DNA of 64,000 bases, from assembly GCA_028688415.1 (NCBI GenBank), contig JAQTYF010000001.1, positions 272,627 through 336,626 on the forward strand. Reading direction: 5' to 3'. This document shows positions 8,663 to 63,285 of this stretch, piece by piece. The position numbers were made by a program, and so were the translations under genes. The notes under the pieces are model-generated. The model was not told the origin of the DNA. It saw nothing but the letters and a program-made list of their open reading frames with translations, and made no database searches. The number at the start of each line of letters is the position of its first letter. The stretch's first letter is position 1. The DNA is from Candidatus Moraniibacteriota bacterium (GTDB lineage Bacteria; Patescibacteriota; Minisyncoccia; Moranbacterales; UBA1568).

Positions 8663-10402
8663 CTATTCGTCAAGAAGATCTTTCCATGAATGCATGTTTC
8701 TAATAGTTTCAGCTTGCCTTGTTTTCTGTGCTTCTATTTTTGAATCAATGCTGTAGAGGATGTTAATTTTTGGTTTCAAATAGATGACATTCATAATTCC
8801 AAAAGATTTAATTTCCATAACATCAAATAAATCAATAAATTGGGACAGGTCATTCTTTTTTTTATCCGTACTCATCTGTATTGAAAAATATTCCCCGTCT
8901 CTAGATAGTTGTTTCTTATCGAACTTGTTGAGGTAGTCGTATCCTTTTCCTTGAAGGAATATCCAATATGTCGGTTCATACTCAGATTCTGATGAAATGA
9001 AAATTTTTGCATCTTTATTCGGGACTTTCTGCTCTATATAATCTGTAATTTTCTGGTGTATGAAGAATGGGGTTCTATAATAATTCGGAAAAACATCCTC
9101 AGTTTCAACTTCGATCATTATTTCTTCTGAATTATTGAGTTGTAAGAAACTATCTGAAATTTTTGTTAAGTTTATTCCTACAATCAATAGCGTAGCAATA
9201 ATAACAAGAGCACCGTTCAATATTTTCTTTTTGAAGTTTATTTGTTCAAATATCAGCCCTAAAAATATAAATGCAAGGGGGGCAAGTACGAGATAAAATC
9301 TTGGATATATGTAGAGTTTTTTTAATGTTAGAGATATAAAATAAAGACTTCCAATGAATAGCCACAGTCCAGAAATTATCAAAAAGTCTTTCTGTATAGA
9401 TCTTTTTTTAATAAAAAAATTCCACACAATAAGCAAAATCGAAATCATGTAAAAAAGTAACGCAGAGAGTCTCCAGAAGAAATCTTCTTTACATGTTTTG
9501 CAAAACAGCCCAAGCGAATATCCATTTGGTCTACTTGTATTTATTCTATCTTCACCCGTTAGGATAAGAAAAAATTCTCCCGAATTATATCGGAAATTCT
9601 GTACTATTTTTTCAGAAATATTCTTTTTTTCTTTACTTGATCCAGAAATTTTTTCAATAAATAATTTTGAATTAGACCAATCATATTTAATTTCATGTAC
9701 GATGAGAGGGGAGTAAATAAGAACTGAAAATAAAATCGCATATATTACCGTTCTTAATGGGAAATGAGGACGTTTAATCAAGAGAAAAAGGATATATGTT
9801 GGAACTATTATAAATAATCCATTGAAGTGCAGTTGACTTATTATTGAGAGAAGTACCAATGAAAGTATAAAAAAAATATTTCGATTTTTCTCTTCTACAG
9901 AAATACTCCTCAATAATAAATAAAACATTGCTAAAATAAAAAATGGCAAGACATTTGGGTTCCAAGAAAAACGAGCGTATTGGATCATGTAAAACGAAGT
10001 GGAATAGAGAGCTAATAGTGACAATGATATGAGGTGAGAAAAATATATACGTGCAAAAACGAAAAATAACGGCAAGGATGCAAGCGCAAGGATAAGGTTG
10101 GGCATCGCATGTCCTGATGGCGTATTTGCAAAAATTCTTCCACCAAGGTATTCAATGTAGTAATATGCTGGTCCTATACGCAGTTCCTCTGCCCCAGCTC
10201 TTGGTCCAAGGAGTTTTAAGTTCCCAATTCCACTTTGGACTGCTGGCGATGTAATGAGAAAATCATCGACCTGATCTGTCTCAAAATGAAGCCAATCTCC
10301 GAAATGATAGGTGCGTAAAAAAAATCCTATACCAAAAATAATAATCAGTGCGATATGAAATTTTCTTTTTTTACCAAACTCAATAATTTCTTTTGAAGTC
10401 AT
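8663..10402 (-). CDS. GT-C fold membrane glycosyltransferase (ArnT/PMT, GT39/GT83-like); AT-rich paralogue
   Basis: The N-terminal FFLRTYHFGDWLHFETDQVDD motif is shared with the 12838-14625 product. About 11 TM helices plus a C-terminal soluble domain. Very AT-rich (I/K/N/F). Confidence 0.75.
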   Translation of the reverse strand: MTSKEIIEFGKKRKFHIALIIIFGIGFFLRTYHFGDWLHFETDQVDDFLITSPAVQSGIGNLKLLGPRAGAEELRIGPAYYYIEYLGGRIFANTPSGHAMPNLILALASLPLFFVFARIYFSHLISLSLLALYSTSFYMIQYARFSWNPNVLPFFILAMFYLLLRSISVEEKNRNIFFILSLVLLSIISQLHFNGLFIIVPTYILFLLIKRPHFPLRTVIYAILFSVLIYSPLIVHEIKYDWSNSKLFIEKISGSSKEKKNISEKIVQNFRYNSGEFFLILTGEDRINTSRPNGYSLGLFCKTCKEDFFWRLSALLFYMISILLIVWNFFIKKRSIQKDFLIISGLWLFIGSLYFISLTLKKLYIYPRFYLVLAPLAFIFLGLIFEQINFKKKILNGALVIIATLLIVGINLTKISDSFLQLNNSEEIMIEVETEDVFPNYYRTPFFIHQKITDYIEQKVPNKDAKIFISSESEYEPTYWIFLQGKGYDYLNKFDKKQLSRDGEYFSIQMSTDKKKNDLSQFIDLFDVMEIKSFGIMNVIYLKPKINILYSIDSKIEAQKTRQAETIRNMHSWKDLLDE

Positions 10403-10464: not shown

Positions 10465-12735
10465 TTATTGTTCAAAACGAAATACTTTGACAAATTGCGA
10501 GGGTCGATTGTTGATATCGATTTCAAAAATTGGATTTTTCTTCGTGTAGTATTGGTCGAAACGGATGAGACCTGGTTCGTTTGTTATGATATCACCACTC
10601 ATCATCTTGGTCGTGCGACTCTGCCGACCCGAAGAAACAACAATGTAATCAAGCCCTTCTGTGTGGAGTCGGTCATAATTGAGACTGCTCATACAGCGAC
10701 CAATGAAGAATTTGCAAACACCCTCCTTGTCGGTCCAGATAAGCATATTTTCAGCTTTGGGGAGTGTATTCAAATATCTGGCGACTTCATAGCTTCCTGC
10801 ACCCATATCTTTCATATCCGTACTATACTTGTTCGGGAGGAACATTGATGCGTAACTGAGAGAGAACGGTGTTGTGAAAAGTGTCAGTCCTCCGAAGAAA
10901 AGAACAAAGGATGCGATGAAAACTGGTGTCGGCATTTCTTTCACAGAGAATCGCTTGTGGATGAGGATGAGGAAATGCTCGAGTGTGATACCCGCAATGA
11001 TCGCCACGAGAGGGAAAATAATGATCTGATAACGGACGATAGCGGCGACGTGGTTGACAGTCGTACCGAAATAATAGAGTAAGACAAAAATGATGAGATA
11101 AAAAGAGGTGCGGAGAGCGACGGATTCTGTCCACTGTTTTTTCAGAAAAAAGAGTGGGGCAATGAGTAATGAAAGAAAAACAATCGGCGTGACACCAAAA
11201 ATCATCGGGTAAAAATTCGTCAAAAAGGCACCAATAAGGTCACTTTTCCCAGAAATGGTCTTGGGTGAAGCGAGGAGATCCATAAAAGGGTAAAGCGTCA
11301 TACCAGACCAGGTGTTCCAGAGGGTAGCAATGACAGAGAGGAAAAAAATTCCGCCGATGAAAAGTGCGAGTTCGTGTCTGATTCTTTTCAAGAAATCAAG
11401 AATGATACTGGTAAAACGAGATTTATTCAGCCATTGGTCGATCAGGATGAGAGCAATAAGAACGAGAAAAATAGGTGCAACTTTTTCGAAGGCCTGACTG
11501 AAGAGGGTCGAGGTGAGGAGTTTGCTTGGCTTGACCCAGACAGCAGGGAAGAGAATGAAGAAAGTAGTCAATGCTGAGAAGGTAAGAAGAGCAAAGTGAC
11601 TGAGTGATTTCTTCAGGTACATGGCAAAGGGGATGAGAGTGTTTTTGGGATGATAGAGATAGTCGAGGAAGATGAGCCCAAGGAAAAAAACAAAGAGGAT
11701 ATTGGCGACGTATTTGGTGAGGAGTGCGAGACCGAGGAAGATGCCAGAAAAGATGAGGTAACGAAAAGACCCTCGTTTCAGGAAGACGAAATAGGAGAGG
11801 AGAGACAGTGGAGAGAAAACCCAGAGAAGCGAATCAGGATTCACTATTTTGGTCATCCCGACCAGAATAGGAGAAAGGGCGATGAAAACAAAACTAAAAA
11901 GTGCTCGTCTCCTCCCGAGGAGTCGCTCGAGAAAGAAATAAAAGAAGGGTAACATCAGTGTGACGAATAGGAGAATAGGGAAACGGAATGCGAAATAATA
12001 ACTCTCGACACCTTTTTTGAGGTTGAATACTTCGCCTTCTGAATGAATGGTTTTGTATTCATTGGTAGATTTGAAAAGTGTGCCTGGTCCTGTAACGAGA
12101 GCTACAGTGATGCCTGGTTTGTCACTGATACCAGTACCTCTCCAGTCTCGTTCACCGATATTTTTCCAGTATTTAGCGATACGACCGTCGATCCAGAGCG
12201 GTTCATCGACTGCTGCGTACTGTGTCAATCGAGACAAACCGAAAACAAAAAACATCCCTGTAGCGATGATTATGAGAAGAAGTATTGGTAATCCTTGGGC
12301 AATGAACCATTGCTTGCACGAGAGAGCCTCTGTATCTCTGTCAGTACATGAAGAGTGTTCTTTGTTGATAAAAAAGGTAGATATCAGTATACCTGAAAGG
12401 ATGCCATACGTACCGAGAGCAATATCGAATATATAATGGAAAGAACGTGACGTATTCATCCCGTAGAGAAGTGTCAGTACACCAGGAAGCCAGATAAGGA
12501 GAAAGGTAGTGAGTTGCTTCTTCCAATCGAGTTGAGAAGAAAAGTAAGCAATACCTCCAAGAGAAAGCACTGTCAAAGCTACGAAGCCGAAATAGAATGG
12601 ATCATTGTTGGTAAAAAAAGAAAACGATATATTTTTTTTGGATTGCGCGATGATGAAGAGAAACATCCAGAATGCGCAGAGCGCAGATACACTACTGTAG
12701 AAACGATTTTCTCTGCCATTGAAAAGAGTGTACAT
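10465..12735 (-). CDS. large GT-C fold membrane glycosyltransferase (PMT_2/ArnT-like) with extra C-terminal domain
   Basis: A 756-aa protein with many TM helices, a PMT_2-like core (…KYVANILFVFFLGLIFLDYLYHPK…) and a C-terminal roughly 150-aa soluble part. Confidence 0.7.
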   Translation of the reverse strand: MYTLFNGRENRFYSSVSALCAFWMFLFIIAQSKKNISFSFFTNNDPFYFGFVALTVLSLGGIAYFSSQLDWKKQLTTFLLIWLPGVLTLLYGMNTSRSFHYIFDIALGTYGILSGILISTFFINKEHSSCTDRDTEALSCKQWFIAQGLPILLLIIIATGMFFVFGLSRLTQYAAVDEPLWIDGRIAKYWKNIGERDWRGTGISDKPGITVALVTGPGTLFKSTNEYKTIHSEGEVFNLKKGVESYYFAFRFPILLFVTLMLPFFYFFLERLLGRRRALFSFVFIALSPILVGMTKIVNPDSLLWVFSPLSLLSYFVFLKRGSFRYLIFSGIFLGLALLTKYVANILFVFFLGLIFLDYLYHPKNTLIPFAMYLKKSLSHFALLTFSALTTFFILFPAVWVKPSKLLTSTLFSQAFEKVAPIFLVLIALILIDQWLNKSRFTSIILDFLKRIRHELALFIGGIFFLSVIATLWNTWSGMTLYPFMDLLASPKTISGKSDLIGAFLTNFYPMIFGVTPIVFLSLLIAPLFFLKKQWTESVALRTSFYLIIFVLLYYFGTTVNHVAAIVRYQIIIFPLVAIIAGITLEHFLILIHKRFSVKEMPTPVFIASFVLFFGGLTLFTTPFSLSYASMFLPNKYSTDMKDMGAGSYEVARYLNTLPKAENMLIWTDKEGVCKFFIGRCMSSLNYDRLHTEGLDYIVVSSGRQSRTTKMMSGDIITNEPGLIRFDQYYTKKNPIFEIDINNRPSQFVKVFRFEQ

Positions 12736-47861: not shown

Positions 47862-48635
47862 ATGCGTAAATGTCTCGACAGACCAATCCGCACATCTTTC
47901 CATAATGGGGAAATAATTGCTGATGTTTTCCTTCCTCTTCGTCAGACGGGGAGGATAGCCATATTGGCAGGGGGTTTACCCTCGTCTCCATCACAAAATG
48001 ATACACTGAGATTTCTCACAACATTCGGTTATGTAGCCATCTTTTTTCGCTATAGAGGAACGTGGGAAAGCAGGGGAAATTTTCTCGAAAAATCTCCTGC
48101 TCGAGACATCGCGGATATTCTTTCTGATTTAAAGGGGAGTCGAAAAATACACAATATTTTTCTGGAGGAAGATATCCCCATCAAAGTATCGTCCGTCACT
48201 CTCTTTGGTTCATCATTCGGGGGACCAGCAGTTCTCCTCAATTCTACGAATCCCCTCGTCAAAAAAGTTATTGCACTCTCACCTGTCCTCGACTGGCAAA
48301 CGATCGAACATGGGAGCGAACCATCATCAGACCATTTCCGATTCATCGAACAAGGATATCCCGAAGCATATCGGGTAAAGAAAAGACATGATTGGAAAAA
48401 GATTCACCGTCCTGATTTTTATAATCCACTCACCAATACATCTTTGATCGATGGTAGGAAGGTGTTCATTCTACATGCCACCGACGATACAATAGTGCCA
48501 GACACGACACTACCTCTGTTCACCGAAAAAACCGGTGCCACAGTATACCTCAAGCCACGTGGCGGACACTTCGGATTACGATACATCACCCATCAGTTTT
48601 TTTGGAAGAAAATACAAAACTTTTTGGAGCAATGA
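47862..48635 (+). CDS. alpha/beta-hydrolase (dienelactone hydrolase / peptidase S9-like)
   Basis: Carries LFGSSFGG (nucleophile elbow GxSxG), HATDDTIVP (Asp) and GGHFG (His). Confidence 0.75.
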   Translation: MRKCLDRPIRTSFHNGEIIADVFLPLRQTGRIAILAGGLPSSPSQNDTLRFLTTFGYVAIFFRYRGTWESRGNFLEKSPARDIADILSDLKGSRKIHNIFLEEDIPIKVSSVTLFGSSFGGPAVLLNSTNPLVKKVIALSPVLDWQTIEHGSEPSSDHFRFIEQGYPEAYRVKKRHDWKKIHRPDFYNPLTNTSLIDGRKVFILHATDDTIVPDTTLPLFTEKTGATVYLKPRGGHFGLRYITHQFFWKKIQNFLEQ

Positions 48636-48726
48636 TAGTCGTACAAAAGAACATTCGTTTTTTTGACTTGCGACTCCCCTCGAAAAAATGAAAAATTGTA
48701 GGGGAGAGAGGAAAAGAAAAAAAGGT

Positions 48727-49060
48727 ATCAAAACGAGTGCCTACAGGTGTACATCTATGTATCCCCAAACCGATCAAAAACGAAGAGAAACAGACATACA
48801 TCGATGACTCAAAAATTTGATCAAAAATGAGTGCTCAGAGGTATACATCTATGCCTCTCCAAATCACTCAAAATGAAAAGAAAAAAATCTATAAAGAATG
48901 AATGCCTAGGAGTATACATTGATGCCTCAGAAAACAGATGATTCCCCTCGCAAAAATGAAAAATAAAAGGGGAGAGAAAATGCTCCTGAAAACGAGCATC
49001 GGAGGGTATACATCAATGTATCTGAAATACAATACAAACCGGAGTGAAAAATGATTCTCT
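48727..49060 (+). repeat. four tandem degenerate ~30-bp direct repeats (atcaaaaNgagtgcYtaNaggtRtacatctATG) at 75-93-bp spacing, each opening a 12-16-codon mini-ORF
   Basis: The copies start near 48727, 48820, 48895 and 48988. Each has a GGAGG/AGGTG-like SD 7-9 nt before the ATG. The peptides are MYPQTDQKRRETDIHR, MPLQITQNEKKKIYKE, MPQKTDDSPRKNEK and MYLKYNTNRSEK. Confidence 0.6.
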
Positions 49061-49563
49061 CGATATACGAGAATACGCGCTAGAGAAATGAGAAGGAAAA
49101 GAGGTATATACGTATCACTTTTTATTCCAAACACCGTATACGCGATTATACGCATTCGTTTTGAATCGATTCGAGGACATACAAGTATCAATTACTCATA
49201 TTTGGCTTATATAAGCTATATAATGAATCAATACTTCTGTTCTCTTCCTATGCTATGTCGCATAAGTTACATAATGCGACGTTGTATAAGAAATAAAAAA
49301 TACTCTCTCCATTCAATACTAAACTCTTCTTTCTTACACTGATTACTACTCTTTCATTTTCTTTTTCTTCCCTCCTCTTCTCTCTACGGATCAATTTATT
49401 GGTCAAAAAAATACTTACTTTTTCTTCTTTTTATTATTCTCTTTTTTTGTTTCATTCTTGTTTACTTTACTTACACCATAACGAAAAGAAAAAGAAAATA
49501 AAAAAACCGGAAATTTTGTTGTTACAAAAAAACCGGCTTTATAAGTGATCGGGTAAAGACAGA

Positions 49564-50361
49564 TTACACGATCTTATTTTCAGAAAAGATAGACACAGCA
49601 TCCTTTCCAGATTCTTTGGAGATATAGAGTGCTCGATCGGCACTCTCGAGAGACTCTCTGTAAAGCCTATCCATTTCATCAGGCGTGGAATTTTGTTCGA
49701 TACCTGACGCAGCGATACCGATACTCACAGTCACAGGAAGACAATTTTCCAGCGAAAGTCGCGTATCGATTTTCATAATCCTTCTCAGTTCATTGGCACG
49801 TTCGATGATCTGCTCTCGCGACGCATTGGCGCACAGAACAAGGAATTCGTCTCCGCCGAAACGAGCAACAATATCGCTGTCCCGATGAAATATCTTCTGA
49901 AGCAACTCCCCAAATATCAGAAGAATGAAGTCCCCCATGGCATGACCCTTGATATCGTTCACTTGCTTGAAGTGATCGAGATCGATCGCCATCAAAAATG
50001 GAGCGAAAAACGGGAGGTCATTCGTCAGCGTATACCGCTGGATCAACCCCACTTGCCGATGCAAAGCCCTCTCGAATCCTCGTCGGTTCAAGAGTTTCGT
50101 CAAAGGATCTTGAAATGCCACTTCATGCAAATCTTTCATCAGTTCTTGCATTTCGGCGTTCTTTTTCAGAACCAACACATTGTGCTGATCGTATTCTTTC
50201 AAGATATCCAACAACTCCTGGATTGTTTGGTTTTGAATACGTGTTGAATCGGCGAGCTCTTGCCTGAGTCTTTCATTCTCTTTCTGAAGATCTTCTGTCG
50301 TTGTGTTACGAACGAGGTCGGAAGAACCGGTACCACCATCTTGATCTTGCGCATGAAACAT
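49564..50361 (-). CDS. GGDEF diguanylate cyclase with N-terminal coiled coil, no sensor domain
   Basis: Carries RFGGDEF with the RDSD I-site 5 residues upstream and LTKLLNRRGFE at the start of the domain. The ORF may start at 50397. Confidence 0.88.
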   Translation of the reverse strand: MFHAQDQDGGTGSSDLVRNTTTEDLQKENERLRQELADSTRIQNQTIQELLDILKEYDQHNVLVLKKNAEMQELMKDLHEVAFQDPLTKLLNRRGFERALHRQVGLIQRYTLTNDLPFFAPFLMAIDLDHFKQVNDIKGHAMGDFILLIFGELLQKIFHRDSDIVARFGGDEFLVLCANASREQIIERANELRRIMKIDTRLSLENCLPVTVSIGIAASGIEQNSTPDEMDRLYRESLESADRALYISKESGKDAVSIFSENKIV

Positions 50362-50497
50362 GATTATCTCCTGATTTGGTTGTAAAAGTGCTACCATATT
50401 TTAATAGCACAAAACACTCGTGTTGTCAATAGTACACGAGAGGAACTTTTCTGTTAGAATAGAGATACTATAAACAAATCTCCTTCAATATAACCCT

Positions 50498-59384: not shown

Positions 59385-61295
59385 CTAGAAAGAAAGTTCC
59401 TTCAGAAGATCATTCAGATCAAGCGAGGCCATGCCGACGACCGTATCACCGCCACCATAGTAGATGACAAGTTTCTTACCCATGATGATCGATCCGCACG
59501 GGAAAACAACGTTTGGTACGATCCCCTCTTTTTCGTATGACATTTCTGGTTCGAAGAGTGGTGTACGCGATCGTCCGATCACTTTTTCTGGATGCTTCAG
59601 ATCAAGCAGTGCTGCTCCGACTCGATAGGTATGGTCGACAGAAGAAACACCGTGGTAAATGAGGAGCCAGCCTTTCTTGGTTTTGAGAGGAGTCGACGAG
59701 AGACCAACTTTCAGATCATCCCACATGTTGATACGCGGAGAGAGGATAGGTCTCTTCACGAAGAAATGCTCTCCATCGAAATCATCGAGACTTTGAATAT
59801 AATTCAGATGAATAGAAGGCTGGACACGGTGAATGAAAACATATTGACCATCGATCTTCTCTGGAAAAATAGCCGCATCTTTGTTATCAACTTCCGCACT
59901 CGAAAGAAGAATTGGTTTGGTAAATTTCTCGAATTTTCGATGGAGAAAATCTTTGACAGCAATACTCGTCATCGCCACTCTCGGTGGATTCACTGCATCG
60001 AAAGCCGTATAACACATATAGTACGTCGAACCGATTTTGGTAAATCGTGCATCTTCACAACCCGAATTGCCAGGATTTTTCTTTTGCTCAAAATCTTCAC
60101 GCGGACTATAAATAGGAATCGGTAATCGCTCATCAATATGAACACCATCTTTGCTCACAGCATATCCAAAACGTGATGTCCCATCGAATCCTTGAGCACG
60201 ATAGACAATATGCACCTTGCCATCCTCATACATCGCAGCGGGATTGTATACTGCCATCGCTTCCCATTCATGCTCTGGAATTGGAGAGAGGATCGGGTTT
60301 TCTTCCGCACGATCGAAACGAAGAGAGCTTTCCTTGGCAAGCATTTCCCGAAGCAGTCCCGAAAGCGAAACCGTCGCACGACAGACTGTCGTATCAGCTG
60401 CACCATAGTAGATATGCACTTCATCTTCTTCTATATACGCCCCGGAAGGGAAAACGATATCAGGAATCATTCCATAATGCTCGTATTCTTCCTGTGGCAC
60501 CATGAGTGGTGTCGGTGTCCGTCCGATGATCTTGCGAGGATTATGGAGATCGAGGAGAACAGCTTCGATACCAAATACCTGATCTGATTTCCCATAGTGA
60601 TAGATATGAGAATAGATAAGTAACCATCCTGCTTTTGTTTTGAGTGGCGGAGCTCCGATTTCGACGTGATCATCGAGTGTCTTATGGAGATCGAGAGCAT
60701 GTTCTGGAAGTTCTTTGTACCATTTGTTCCAATATGCTTCCGACCACATATCTGATTCTTTTTCGAAACTTGCAAGAGCGATTGTCACAGGTGGCTGGTC
60801 AGTATTGGCACTGAGAAGCGCCATCATTTTCCCATCGATCTTCTCCGGAAAAAGCGTCATCGCTTTGGAATTGAAATTCGTCACATGATGCCTACTTTTT
60901 ATTGTCTTCAAATCTTTGGTCGTGACGAGTCCTACTGTGATACCCGCTGGCGAAAAAGGATACGTCGCGAGTGCGGTATAGAAGATATAAAACGTATCAC
61001 CGAGTTTCGTCACACGAGGATCTTCACAACCATATTGTTCCCACGGTTCTTCGGGGACGACAAACTGCGTGTAATCATTGAAATGTATCCCATCATCACT
61101 CACTGCGTGTCCGACGGTCGAGAGTGAGAGCATCGCTCCATGATGGAGTTCTGGTGTCGCGAGCGCTCGATAGAAAATATGAACTTTCTTCCCCTGTTTG
61201 ATTGGTGAACCATTGAAAGCAGCGAGATTTTCCCACATATTTTGACTCATGGGGAGTACGACAGGATTTTCTGGAGAGCGAACGAGTGAGTACAT
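59385..61295 (-). CDS. tandem-domain GH130-family protein (β-mannoside phosphorylase/glycosidase-related)
   Basis: Two repeats of the GH130 pattern (SPENPVV…WE…FN…GCEDPRVTK and AEENPILSP…WEAMAVYNPAA…GCEDARFTK). 636 aa. Confidence 0.8.
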   Translation of the reverse strand: MYSLVRSPENPVVLPMSQNMWENLAAFNGSPIKQGKKVHIFYRALATPELHHGAMLSLSTVGHAVSDDGIHFNDYTQFVVPEEPWEQYGCEDPRVTKLGDTFYIFYTALATYPFSPAGITVGLVTTKDLKTIKSRHHVTNFNSKAMTLFPEKIDGKMMALLSANTDQPPVTIALASFEKESDMWSEAYWNKWYKELPEHALDLHKTLDDHVEIGAPPLKTKAGWLLIYSHIYHYGKSDQVFGIEAVLLDLHNPRKIIGRTPTPLMVPQEEYEHYGMIPDIVFPSGAYIEEDEVHIYYGAADTTVCRATVSLSGLLREMLAKESSLRFDRAEENPILSPIPEHEWEAMAVYNPAAMYEDGKVHIVYRAQGFDGTSRFGYAVSKDGVHIDERLPIPIYSPREDFEQKKNPGNSGCEDARFTKIGSTYYMCYTAFDAVNPPRVAMTSIAVKDFLHRKFEKFTKPILLSSAEVDNKDAAIFPEKIDGQYVFIHRVQPSIHLNYIQSLDDFDGEHFFVKRPILSPRINMWDDLKVGLSSTPLKTKKGWLLIYHGVSSVDHTYRVGAALLDLKHPEKVIGRSRTPLFEPEMSYEKEGIVPNVVFPCGSIIMGKKLVIYYGGGDTVVGMASLDLNDLLKELSF

Positions 61296-61314
61296 AGGCT
61301 AATACAGACAAAAA

Positions 61315-63285
61315 TTATGCATTGGTAAGTGTTTTCTTCAAAGTCGTCATCGTGACCTTTCCAGTGGTAGTGAGCTGATCCAAGAATTCTCCGAGCGGTG
61401 CGGTAGCGACAGCGACCGTCGTGTCAGCTCCACCATAATAGACAAAAAGTGTCTCATCTTTGATTACTGCTCCACAGACATACACGACACCAGATTTCAA
61501 TCCTTCATTCTCATAATGTTCGTCTGGTTCGAGTATTGGTTCGACGCAACGAGCGAGGATTTTCTCAGGATCATTCTGATCGAGGAGCATCGCGCCTACC
61601 TTGTAACGATTCGGGTCATTCTGATCCATTGCGTGATAGAGTACGAGCCAGCCCTGATCCGTCTTGAGAGGAGTCGCACCGACACCTCGGACAATGTTAT
61701 CCCACTGACTCTTGTCGGTATAGTGTTGCTTGGTATGATAGCTATCGATGAGAAGTGATTCGTCATCGAGAGAAGCGACATAGTCGATAGATATTTTGGG
61801 CGAAATACTGTGAAGTACAGCATAATGACCATTGATTTTTTCTGGGAAAATAACCCAGTTCTTCTGAATCTGCCCAGGACGAGAGATGAGTCGTGGCGCT
61901 TCCCATTCCCATACTTTGTTCACGAAATTCTCCGTAGTAATGGAAGTCAGTGCCACTCCTGGTGGATTGTATCCATTGAACGAAATGTAAATCATATAAA
62001 TCTTGTCCTCGATTTGCGTCAAACGAGGATCCTCACAGCCACCCCATCCTCCACCAGAAATACACGGGAACGGATGCTTGTTTTTTTTGAAATCTTGATT
62101 GAGAAAATAGACAGGGTCTGTAGAACGTTCATCGATATGAACACCATCACTACTCCCTGCATAACCAAAGACGGAAATATTATCAAATCCTTGTGCCCGA
62201 TAGATCAGATGCACCTTGTCATTCAAATAGAGTGCAGCAGGATTGAATGTTGCCATCGATTCCCATGCATTTTCTTTGTTTGGTTCGAGAATAGGATTCT
62301 TCGCAGACCGAGTGAGAGGCTTAGTCACACGAGGTTTCTTGGTAGTCTTCGTGAGTGGTTTTTTGACAGTTTTTCTTGGCAGTTTGTTGTCCAGATCGAC
62401 ATCATAGGCGAGTTTCTCGGAGAATACTTCACCTCGTCCGTGTTCGAAATAGGCAACAAAAGCATTTTTCGTCTGGATGATTCCAAGTACTTTAATTTTG
62501 TTGGTAATCCAATCAATAGGCTGTTCCCAGAGAGGGTGCGCAGATCGCCATACGATTCTTCCTGGAGCCTGCTTATCAAAAAGCACGACACCGAGACAGA
62601 GCTTCTTGCGTGCATTTTTGGCAGTATAGAACAGTGCGATATGTTCACCGACATTCAACACTCGAGCAACTCGGAGAGCACTGTGATCAAAACGATTCTT
62701 CCGTGGTCGCATGAGGGCATCCGGCATAATGTGCCACTGATTGAGATTGGCAGAAGTCGCAATTCTGATGGAGGTGTTTCCGAAATAAAGAATATGGTGT
62801 TTTTCGAAAAGATATTCCGGCACTACCATACCGAAAGAATTCACCCCAGTAATGAGGGACTGTTTCTGAAACTGAATACCTTTGTGAGAAGTCGCTCCGT
62901 AGAGATGTGTACGGAGATGATGATCTCGCTTGGTATAGGTCATGAAATAGCGATTCTCTGCTATTTTGGTCGTCGCCATTTCATCGATATGCAGAGAATC
63001 TTCACGATGACGGAAGAACGCAGTATCGATCTTGAGATGTTTGGGAGAGTCGACAAAAGAAGAACCATTGGAACTTTCTTTCATTCTGAAAAAATATTCT
63101 TTCTTTCCTGAAAAAGAATAAATCAAACGGAACAGTCCGTTTTTACTGTATAAATCGAGACCACGAATAGGTGGTGTTTGTTGCATATTTTTTTGTTTTT
63201 CTTCCACGTCGACAATACTGTTTTGATATTGAAATGAAATATACCCTATCTTTTGTACGGTTTCTTTCACACCCGTATCATACAA
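61315..63285 (-). CDS. GH130-family protein with divergent N-terminal β-propeller-like domain (paralogue of 59385-61295)
   Basis: The C-terminal half reads AKNPILEPNKENAWESMATFNPAAL…GGCEDPRLTQ. The N-terminal roughly 330 aa is divergent. Confidence 0.75.
   Translation of the reverse strand: MYDTGVKETVQKIGYISFQYQNSIVDVEEKQKNMQQTPPIRGLDLYSKNGLFRLIYSFSGKKEYFFRMKESSNGSSFVDSPKHLKIDTAFFRHREDSLHIDEMATTKIAENRYFMTYTKRDHHLRTHLYGATSHKGIQFQKQSLITGVNSFGMVVPEYLFEKHHILYFGNTSIRIATSANLNQWHIMPDALMRPRKNRFDHSALRVARVLNVGEHIALFYTAKNARKKLCLGVVLFDKQAPGRIVWRSAHPLWEQPIDWITNKIKVLGIIQTKNAFVAYFEHGRGEVFSEKLAYDVDLDNKLPRKTVKKPLTKTTKKPRVTKPLTRSAKNPILEPNKENAWESMATFNPAALYLNDKVHLIYRAQGFDNISVFGYAGSSDGVHIDERSTDPVYFLNQDFKKNKHPFPCISGGGWGGCEDPRLTQIEDKIYMIYISFNGYNPPGVALTSITTENFVNKVWEWEAPRLISRPGQIQKNWVIFPEKINGHYAVLHSISPKISIDYVASLDDESLLIDSYHTKQHYTDKSQWDNIVRGVGATPLKTDQGWLVLYHAMDQNDPNRYKVGAMLLDQNDPEKILARCVEPILEPDEHYENEGLKSGVVYVCGAVIKDETLFVYYGGADTTVAVATAPLGEFLDQLTTTGKVTMTTLKKTLTNA

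Follow-up and report, generated by a model that had tools for sequence, protein, structure and literature searches.

A probable replication terminus with a dif-type site and convergent AGGGGA(G) motifs in a Candidatus Moranbacteria chromosome

We analysed a 64,000-nt stretch of contig JAQTYF010000001.1 (GenBank assembly GCA_028688415.1), referred to here as the window, and in particular the non-coding block at 48636-49563. The DNA comes from the metagenome-assembled genome of an uncultured bacterium. Very probably, this block is the terminus of a Candidatus Moranbacteria chromosome, at which its replication arms join, and it holds a candidate dif (Xer recombination) site at 49255..49282. It would therefore belong to a known kind of element, a dif site accompanied by polar motifs resembling KOPS, encountered here at the chromosome terminus of a member of the Patescibacteria. 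A preliminary description of this DNA had reported a gap with repeats, paired hairpins, short open reading frames (mini-ORFs) and an AT-rich tail, all of which we found at about the positions that it gave. It overlooked the 28-bp palindrome lying between the repeats and the pyrimidine tail, and its statement that no described element could be recognised fails for the block as a whole, which probably corresponds to a dif-type terminus.

The candidate site, ATGTCGCATAA / GTTACA / TAATGCGACGT, is a 28-bp imperfect palindrome with no assigned strand, in which two 11-bp arms flank a 6-bp centre. Nine of the 11 arm positions are symmetric in the window, and all 11 are symmetric in two of the related loci described below (L004 and L010). 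The inner bases, CATAA and T(T/A)ATG, are the same as in published dif sites (PMC3025954). Among the relatives the palindrome has the form AATGTCGCATAA-GTTACA-TTATGCGACAT, with variants in which the arms covary symmetrically (GTCGC/GCGAC, GTCTC/GAGAC, GTCGT/ACGAC). Kono et al., who predicted dif sites in 641 strains, require more than four of six complementary pairs between positions 7-12 and 17-22 (Kono et al. 2011; PMC3025954); a count by hand gave a borderline four of six for the window, and L004, L010 and L017 reached five of six.

Syntenic loci were obtained through homologues of the alpha/beta-hydrolase encoded upstream of the gap, from other metagenome-assembled genomes and from metagenomes, at protein identities from 76% down to ~54%. 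The site was found once in each of the 11 distinct hydrolase-syntenic loci that reach that far (flanking protein identity down to ~55%), and it is near-invariant across loci although both flanks diverge. Its core, CATAAGTTACAT, occurs a single time in the window and once per locus wherever it is carried. In five distant loci (L025, L028, L030, L044 and L048) the site is retained without the conserved module that precedes it elsewhere, and we therefore regard the site as the older and more general element. One of the loci, L003 (CAYVHS010000001.1), is titled 'uncultured Bdellovibrionales' and shows the full LigT-WecG-GltX-M23-hydrolase-dif-GGDEF-nuclease synteny together with the same dif site as the Moranbacteria loci; its taxonomic label may therefore be wrong.

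The site resembles the chromosomal dif/XerCD sites of E. coli and B. subtilis in its length of 28 bp, its imperfect inverted arms, its 6-bp centre and its CATAA...TTATG-type inner bases, as well as in its setting: each locus examined has a single site, which lies in non-coding DNA where the arms join, near a turning point of the GC skew and with converging G-rich polar motifs on the flanks. It differs from the model sites in the outer arm bases and in the central hexamer, and a XerC and a XerD arm are not assignable. Unlike the model sites, too, the palindrome often extends some bases past 28 bp, by ~12 nt on each side in most loci (e.g. L027, L017 and L042; an example reads ..GTATnnAATGTCGC...GCGACATTGTATAC...), so that the recombinase footprint may be longer than in model dif sites. 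The near-perfect arm symmetry in some relatives (L004, L010) also fits a system with a single recombinase, and one with two recombinases is likewise possible. In the XerS and XerH systems the recombinase gene adjoins its own site; no Xer gene was present in the window or in the related loci, and the present system is therefore not XerS- or XerH-like.

The second line of evidence concerns strand polarity. An unbiased k-mer search of the window for motifs whose strand flips at the site placed AGGGGA, AGAGGG, AGAGGGG and AAGAGGGG at or near the top. AGAGGGG, for example, occurs nine times on the plus strand, always before 46.4 kb, and twice on the minus strand, both times after 51 kb, which places the flip in the window between 46.4 and 51.2 kb. 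In 34 other loci, several of them closely related, AGGGGA was counted 95 times on the plus and 20 times on the minus strand left of the site, and once on the plus and 70 times on the minus strand right of it; the corresponding counts for GGGGAG were 64 and 13 on the left and 1 and 53 on the right (the conserved element itself being excluded from both). In the pooled data AGGGGA(G), a core with mostly purines ahead of it, was the most skewed k-mer for k = 5 to 7, with AGGGGA pointing toward the site 181 times and away from it 23 times, and AGGGGAG 70 and 3 times, respectively. Pooled bins of 250 nt gave 13 plus-strand and three minus-strand motifs in the interval -250..0, and none and 18 in the interval 0..+250, indicating that the flip occurs at the site itself. 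Over the first 250 nt on its right, the motif was about three times as dense as in the more distant flanks. In the part of the window left of the site, 10 plus-strand motifs lie in plus-strand genes and nine in minus-strand genes, with only one motif on the minus strand; the polarity is thus independent of transcription.

The composition of the block follows the same pattern, since the convergent polarity of AGGGGA(G) accounts for its purine-rich left half and pyrimidine-rich right half. The purine fraction falls from 0.58-0.64 (48636-49135) to 0.26-0.40 (49236-49435), with a GC content of 0.25-0.32 in this tail, in agreement with the AT-rich, pyrimidine-skewed tail described earlier. The right flank of the site (49283..49470, minus strand) is pyrimidine-rich on the plus strand, and an inverted-repeat search identified within it an inverted G-rich tract (49367-49385, minus strand, AGAGAGAAGAGGAGGGAAG) that points back at dif. 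Across loci, the first 250 nt right of dif contain TCCCCT-type motifs.

The cumulative G-C curve of the window rises to ~31 kb, remains on a plateau to ~45 kb and then declines. The preliminary description had suggested a GC-skew analysis in view of a possible replication origin; a turning point is indeed present, but it is a maximum, as at a terminus, and not a minimum, as at an origin. G-rich, skewed octamers that converge on dif and guide FtsK or SpoIIIE are known as KOPS in E. coli (GGGNAGGG) and SRS in B. subtilis (GAGAAGGG) (PMC3384302). AGGGGA(G) shares with them its G-rich purine composition, its strong strand skew, its direction toward dif on both arms and its independence of gene orientation; its core differs from theirs, and a role as guide for the FtsK gamma domain is putative, by analogy.

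Several points weigh against the interpretation as a terminus with a dif site. The plateau of the GC skew (31-45 kb) ends ~4 kb short of the site. Plain similarity to known sites is at chance level: in a Hamming comparison with three published dif sequences as references, the best match was 18 of 28 positions, to E. coli dif (GGTGCGCATAATGTATATTATGTTAAAT, that is, GGTGCGCATAA TGTATA TTATGTTAAAT; PMC3025954), and other positions of the window and shuffled sequences did equally well. The dif site of F. alni, for comparison, is CACGCCGATAA TGCACA TTATGTCAAGT (PMC3025954). Plain similarity is a poor detector of dif according to Kono et al. (PMC3025954) and, as it is not significant alone, the case for dif rests on the other evidence. 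A tblastn search with XerD and FtsK probes gave no match in the window or in 49 loci, and we assume that the Xer/FtsK machinery for the site is encoded elsewhere in the genome. The conservation of the site is also supported by 30 more loci, with one site apiece, from a scan of metagenomes with a degenerate pattern, but these match the site by construction. The relatedness of several loci also means that the pooled motif counts overstate independence.

The chance-level similarity to model dif sites and the lack of a recombinase gene nearby would also fit a palindrome near the terminus that is not dif at all, being instead an operator, the attachment site of another integrase or a bidirectional terminator. 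We consider this unlikely. It would be surprising for an operator or terminator to coincide exactly, in more than 30 loci, with the flip of a genome-wide polar motif, or to remain near-invariant while both flanks diverge, and the 11+6+11 layout with inner CATAA/TTATG is the layout of dif. Moreover, reading of the sequence showed no T-run on either side of the 28-bp palindrome.

In the terminus model, the functional core of the block would be the 28-bp dif-type site, at which Xer and FtsK would act and which would serve for the resolution of chromosome dimers. By analogy with the known guide motifs, AGGGGA(G), pointing at dif from both sides, may steer an FtsK-type DNA pump toward it. In the literature searched, neither dif sites nor FtsK guide motifs have been described for the Patescibacteria (candidate phyla radiation). 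A recognisable dif together with polar AGGGGA(G) would offer a practical way to locate the terminus and to orient contigs in fragmented metagenome-assembled genomes, and the pair may point as well to a hotspot for the insertion of variable or mobile DNA.

Every syntenic locus has a non-coding stretch 3' of the hydrolase gene, or 3' of one extra small gene, and the alignment of these stretches revealed, besides the palindrome, four conserved parts that are confined to the left side of dif. The first, about -220 to -295 from dif, is a hairpin, GACTCCCC(Y)-loop-(R)GGGGAGTC, followed by a T-run in most relatives; it contains one covarying pair (15/36, UA/CG) and looks like an intrinsic terminator of the upstream operon. 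It is followed by a G-rich purine tract and by a palindromic box with the consensus GGATACAT-NN-ATGTACC at about -130. The fourth part, at about -85, is a block of the form CAGAACGC(A)TT(A)TACGCATTC(A)TTTT that contains two ACGCATT-like direct half-repeats. In 16 of 28 loci a box or half-box is found between -106 and -150, no locus has one within 300 nt on the opposite side, and extra distal copies of the box are present in L004, L013, L021, L027 and L031. The extra small gene (91-125 aa) separates the hydrolase from the hairpin in L008 (3814-4191), L010 (3823-4113) and L019 (3796-4071); it has no Pfam or PHROG match, and the copies of L008 and L010 are clearly homologous at the DNA level.

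Most relatives carry one hairpin and one box. In the lineage common to the window and its closest relative, L004, the hairpin has been duplicated and the box multiplied to five or six copies, from which we conclude that the repeats are a lineage-specific expansion of the box and its immediate flanks. A repeat search found five copies of a 50-nt unit in the window, all on the plus strand and with 62-78% identity to the reference copy: copy 1 (48730..48779, AAAACGAGTGCC..GGTGTACATCTATGTATCC), which includes the full palindrome TACATCTATGTA at 48750-48761; a weak, degenerate extra copy (48777..48826, ACATACATCGATGACTC, 64% identity); copy 2 (48824..48873, GGTATACATCTATGCC); copy 3 (48895..48944, AGTATACATTGATGCC); and copy 4 (48989..49038, GGGTATACATCAATGTATC), with the palindrome TACATCAATGTA at 49009-49020. 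The four strong copies are spaced 94, 71 and 94 nt apart; the number of copies described earlier is thus matched, and the spacing of 75-93 bp given for them is only approximately so. The repeat core GGTRTACATCWATG occurs exactly three times in the block, with only two matches at two mismatches in the remaining 63 kb, and none of 100 shuffles reached five matches to it.

The two copies of the conserved hairpin (GACTCCCC...GGGGAG), also identified by the repeat search on the plus strand, lie at 48672..48709 (distal; the T-run is lost in the window) and 48940..48977 (proximal) and are 87% identical, confirming the paired hairpin noted before. In the alignment that we used (A2), the proximal copy was taken as the counterpart of the single hairpin of the relatives. 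A small hairpin, ATGCTC-CTGAAAAC-GAGCAT (48980..48999, plus strand), likewise noted before, is conserved only in L004 among the aligned sequences. Further toward dif, a purine- and G-rich tract (GAGAAATGAGAAGGAAAAGAGG) precedes the ancestral, dif-proximal box (49083..49118 together, plus strand), which has diverged to GGTATATACGTATCAC in the window and is aligned in A2 with the single box GGATACATCTATGTACC of the relatives; this diverged box is what had been listed as a fifth repeat copy without an ATG. The last conserved part, CCAAACACCGTATACGCGATTATACGCATTCGTTTTG (49127..49163, plus strand), contains two direct ACGC(R)AT-type half-repeats ~10 nt apart, and its counterpart in the relatives usually lies 71-94 nt ahead of dif.

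Palindromes and tandem half-repeats at a near-fixed distance from a recombination core suggest protein binding, and the palindromic box and the ACGCATT repeats may be binding sites for some DNA-binding protein; our confidence in any specific role of this module is low. The boxes bear no recognisable likeness to ARG or ArcA boxes. A positional analogy exists with the plasmid Xer sites cer (ColE1) and psi (pSC101), whose accessory DNA of ~180 bp binds PepA with ArgR or ArcA and is needed for recombination (PMC5357621): as in those sites, a conserved stretch of ~250 bp with palindromic and direct-repeat boxes lies on one side of the core at a near-fixed distance, and unlike them, the present site is chromosomal. 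By this analogy, the one-sided module could tentatively be viewed as a chromosomal counterpart of the cer/psi accessory sequences, or as a loading or anchoring platform for a protein that organises the terminus, either of which we hold to be doubtful. If it were so, the module would control Xer recombination or the handling of the terminus in these reduced-genome bacteria, and the copy number of the box would be evolutionarily tunable, from one to about six. In any case, the module beside dif offers a concrete target for finding a terminus-associated DNA-binding protein.

The preliminary description had offered three readings of the repeats, and the same data bear on each of them. The reading as a gene in the gap for a structured non-coding RNA built of repeated modules draws on a predicted fold that is better than that of shuffled sequences (z = -3.6 on the plus and -6.1 on the minus strand), on DNA conservation in the block (~82% identity to L004) comparable to that of the flanking protein (76%) and on a TATAAT-like hexamer conserved on the minus strand within the ACGCATT block. 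A favourable fold energy is, however, expected from the internal palindromes and repeats, and RNAalifold on 24 orthologues, on both strands, recovered only the terminator-like hairpin and the dif palindrome. No Rfam family was matched at gathering score in the whole window; for the block at E<=10 there were only weak matches of the eukaryotic snoRNA and miRNA type and one to tracrRNA (19 bits, compared with a gathering score of 70). No sigma-70-type promoter was matched, and the minus strand has no terminator past the hairpin. We therefore judge an RNA gene improbable. A minus-strand promoter at the TATAAT-like hexamer was considered separately and rejected, as there is neither a -35 element nor a terminator.

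Still less probable is a tandem array of translated micro-peptides or leader peptides, in which each repeat would provide the ribosome-binding site and start of a 12-16-codon ORF. The four ATGs do lie 7-9 nt past GGAGG/AGGTG-like purine runs and open short ORFs with stops, one within each of the four strong box copies (the third extending into the next hairpin), and we recovered the four peptides quoted earlier, three by script and the third, MPQKTDDSPRKNEK, by hand from the sequence. The ATG is, however, the right half of the palindrome TACAT-NN-ATGTA, the mirror of CAT, and the single orthologous box of L002 and L005 has CCC or ACC after it in place of an ATG (...CATCTCCC or ...CATCTACCC). 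Nor are the peptides kept in L004: the 16 aa of the first are replaced by 45 unrelated aa, the second is frameshifted by a 1-nt deletion, the third is shortened from 14 to 9 aa, and the fourth shows two non-synonymous and no synonymous changes. A leader peptide would, in addition, have no downstream gene on the same strand to regulate, because the block lies between convergent gene ends, and the promoter scan gave no promoter-like site. The mini-ORFs would rather be by-products of the amplification of the box, which took place in the lineage of the window and L004 along with the duplication of the hairpin; the apparent novelty of a 'tandem micro-ORF array' is removed if it arises from duplicated palindromic DNA boxes.

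The reading of the repeats as protein-binding, iteron-like elements comes closest in spirit to our interpretation, since it anticipated a site of chromosome maintenance, and it errs in the kind of site: a replication origin, or a plasmid-like iteron or partition site at which the repeats bind an initiator or a ParB-like protein, is here highly improbable, and a probable terminus with a dif-type site takes its place. Several similar direct repeats in an AT-rich non-coding gap would be in keeping with an origin. The locus, however, lies at the maximum and not at the minimum of the cumulative GC skew, DnaA boxes are matched in the window no more often than by chance and not at all in the block, the relatives carry one box only, and the convergence of the G-rich polar motifs on the site is what a terminus would show. 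No dnaA/dnaN- or parAB-type product was present among the 17 window proteins scanned or the Pfam labels of the flanks, in a window that is partly annotated. A decayed CRISPR array, brought to mind by repeats with an AT-rich 'leader-like' flank near a PD-(D/E)XK protein with a weak Cas4 match, can be dismissed, since the spacing is irregular (47, 47, 71 and 94 nt), the repeats are only 62-78% identical, Tandem Repeats Finder reported no array, the nuclease, mainly PDDEXK_1/DUF2800, keeps its syntenic place in relatives with a single box, and no other cas gene was found among the proteins scanned.

The DNA to the right of the site behaves differently from that to its left. The non-coding DNA of the window and L004, ~82% identical, parts directly past the right arm of the site. 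L006 and L007 have the same hydrolase protein as L005 and agree with it over the entire left flank, but diverge from it directly past the central hexamer (...CGCATAA GTTACA CTTATTGCCTG...). The switch to unrelated DNA (L006 1226-1482 and L007 1198-1255, compared with L005 from 4103 onward) may stem from an integration event or from a break of the assembly at the palindrome; the two contigs are short and perhaps from the same data, and the junctions are only suggestive of recombination at the site. CTX, TLC and GGI are among the mobile elements that use Xer to integrate at dif (IMEX), and in the sites of GGI and TLC one arm and the centre are retained whereas the other arm diverges (PMC5357621). 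L006 and L007 are similar in that the left arm and the central hexamer are kept while the right arm and the DNA beyond it differ.

As with IMEX, genes of unknown function that vary among the relatives lie right of dif, which fits a hotspot of variable or mobile DNA. Unlike in IMEX, no second dif-like site, complete element or recognisable set of element genes was seen in these short contigs. The small genes right of dif differ among relatives (L008 4762-5214, L010 5073-5728, L011 4760-5680, L019 5160-6600), and the small ORFs flanking dif had no match in Pfam or PHROGs except for L019 5160-5441, which matches phrog_1090 (unknown function, E = 3.5e-18).

Two viral contigs from IMG/VR contain ATGTCGCATAAGTTACAT, the left arm and centre of the Moranbacteria dif (L170 2533-2561, plus strand; L172 ~10801-10829, minus strand). 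Their right arm is divergent (TACGAAACAAA), and the site is intergenic, after a TTGACA-N17-TATAAT promoter; the phage genes of L172 include Erf, a RecE-like exonuclease, NinB, a replication initiator and a virion protein. This could be a phage that uses the host Xer/dif system, with the proviso that three matches to a 17-base pattern are within chance by a rough estimate. A search of the viral collection with the 14-base box pattern returned at least 120 matches, evidently by chance, and was uninformative.

The gap is bounded by the stops of two convergent genes, encoding an alpha/beta-hydrolase (plus strand, 47862-48635), which carries the Candidatus Moranbacteria label in public records, and a GGDEF protein (minus strand, 49564-50397). 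The hydrolase gene is preceded by LigT, WecG, GltX and M23 peptidase genes, and beyond the GGDEF gene lie those for the PD-(D/E)XK nuclease, described before as Cas4-like (Cas4 giving only a weak match), a CsoR-like repressor and an RND efflux pair. The gap is devoid of genes in the public annotation of the source contig; mechanical ORFs of 71-100 aa are present, none of them conserved. Scans of the block found no sigma-70-type promoters, no tRNA or tmRNA and one weak terminator-like site on the minus strand (49073-49057), and Tandem Repeats Finder reported only short low-complexity runs in the tail. An A-run/CCGG repeat read from the sequence (AAAAAAACCGG ... AAAAAAACCGG, 49500..49536, minus strand) is likely the terminator of the convergent GGDEF gene; the terminator scan did not flag it, and a clearer hairpin, CCGGAG...CCGG, occupies the matching position in L002 and L005.

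Two further features of the window lie away from the gap. The interval 9001-10000 has a GC content of 29%, compared with ~42% for the window, and is located inside a 579-aa ORF (8663-10402, minus strand) that has no Pfam match and adjoins two PMT_2-type glycosyltransferase genes. At 59385-63285 on the minus strand, two adjacent paralogous genes encode proteins of ~640-656 aa; in each, a GH130 (mannoside phosphorylase) domain lies at the C-terminus, and the long N-terminal part matches nothing in Pfam at E <= 1e-5.

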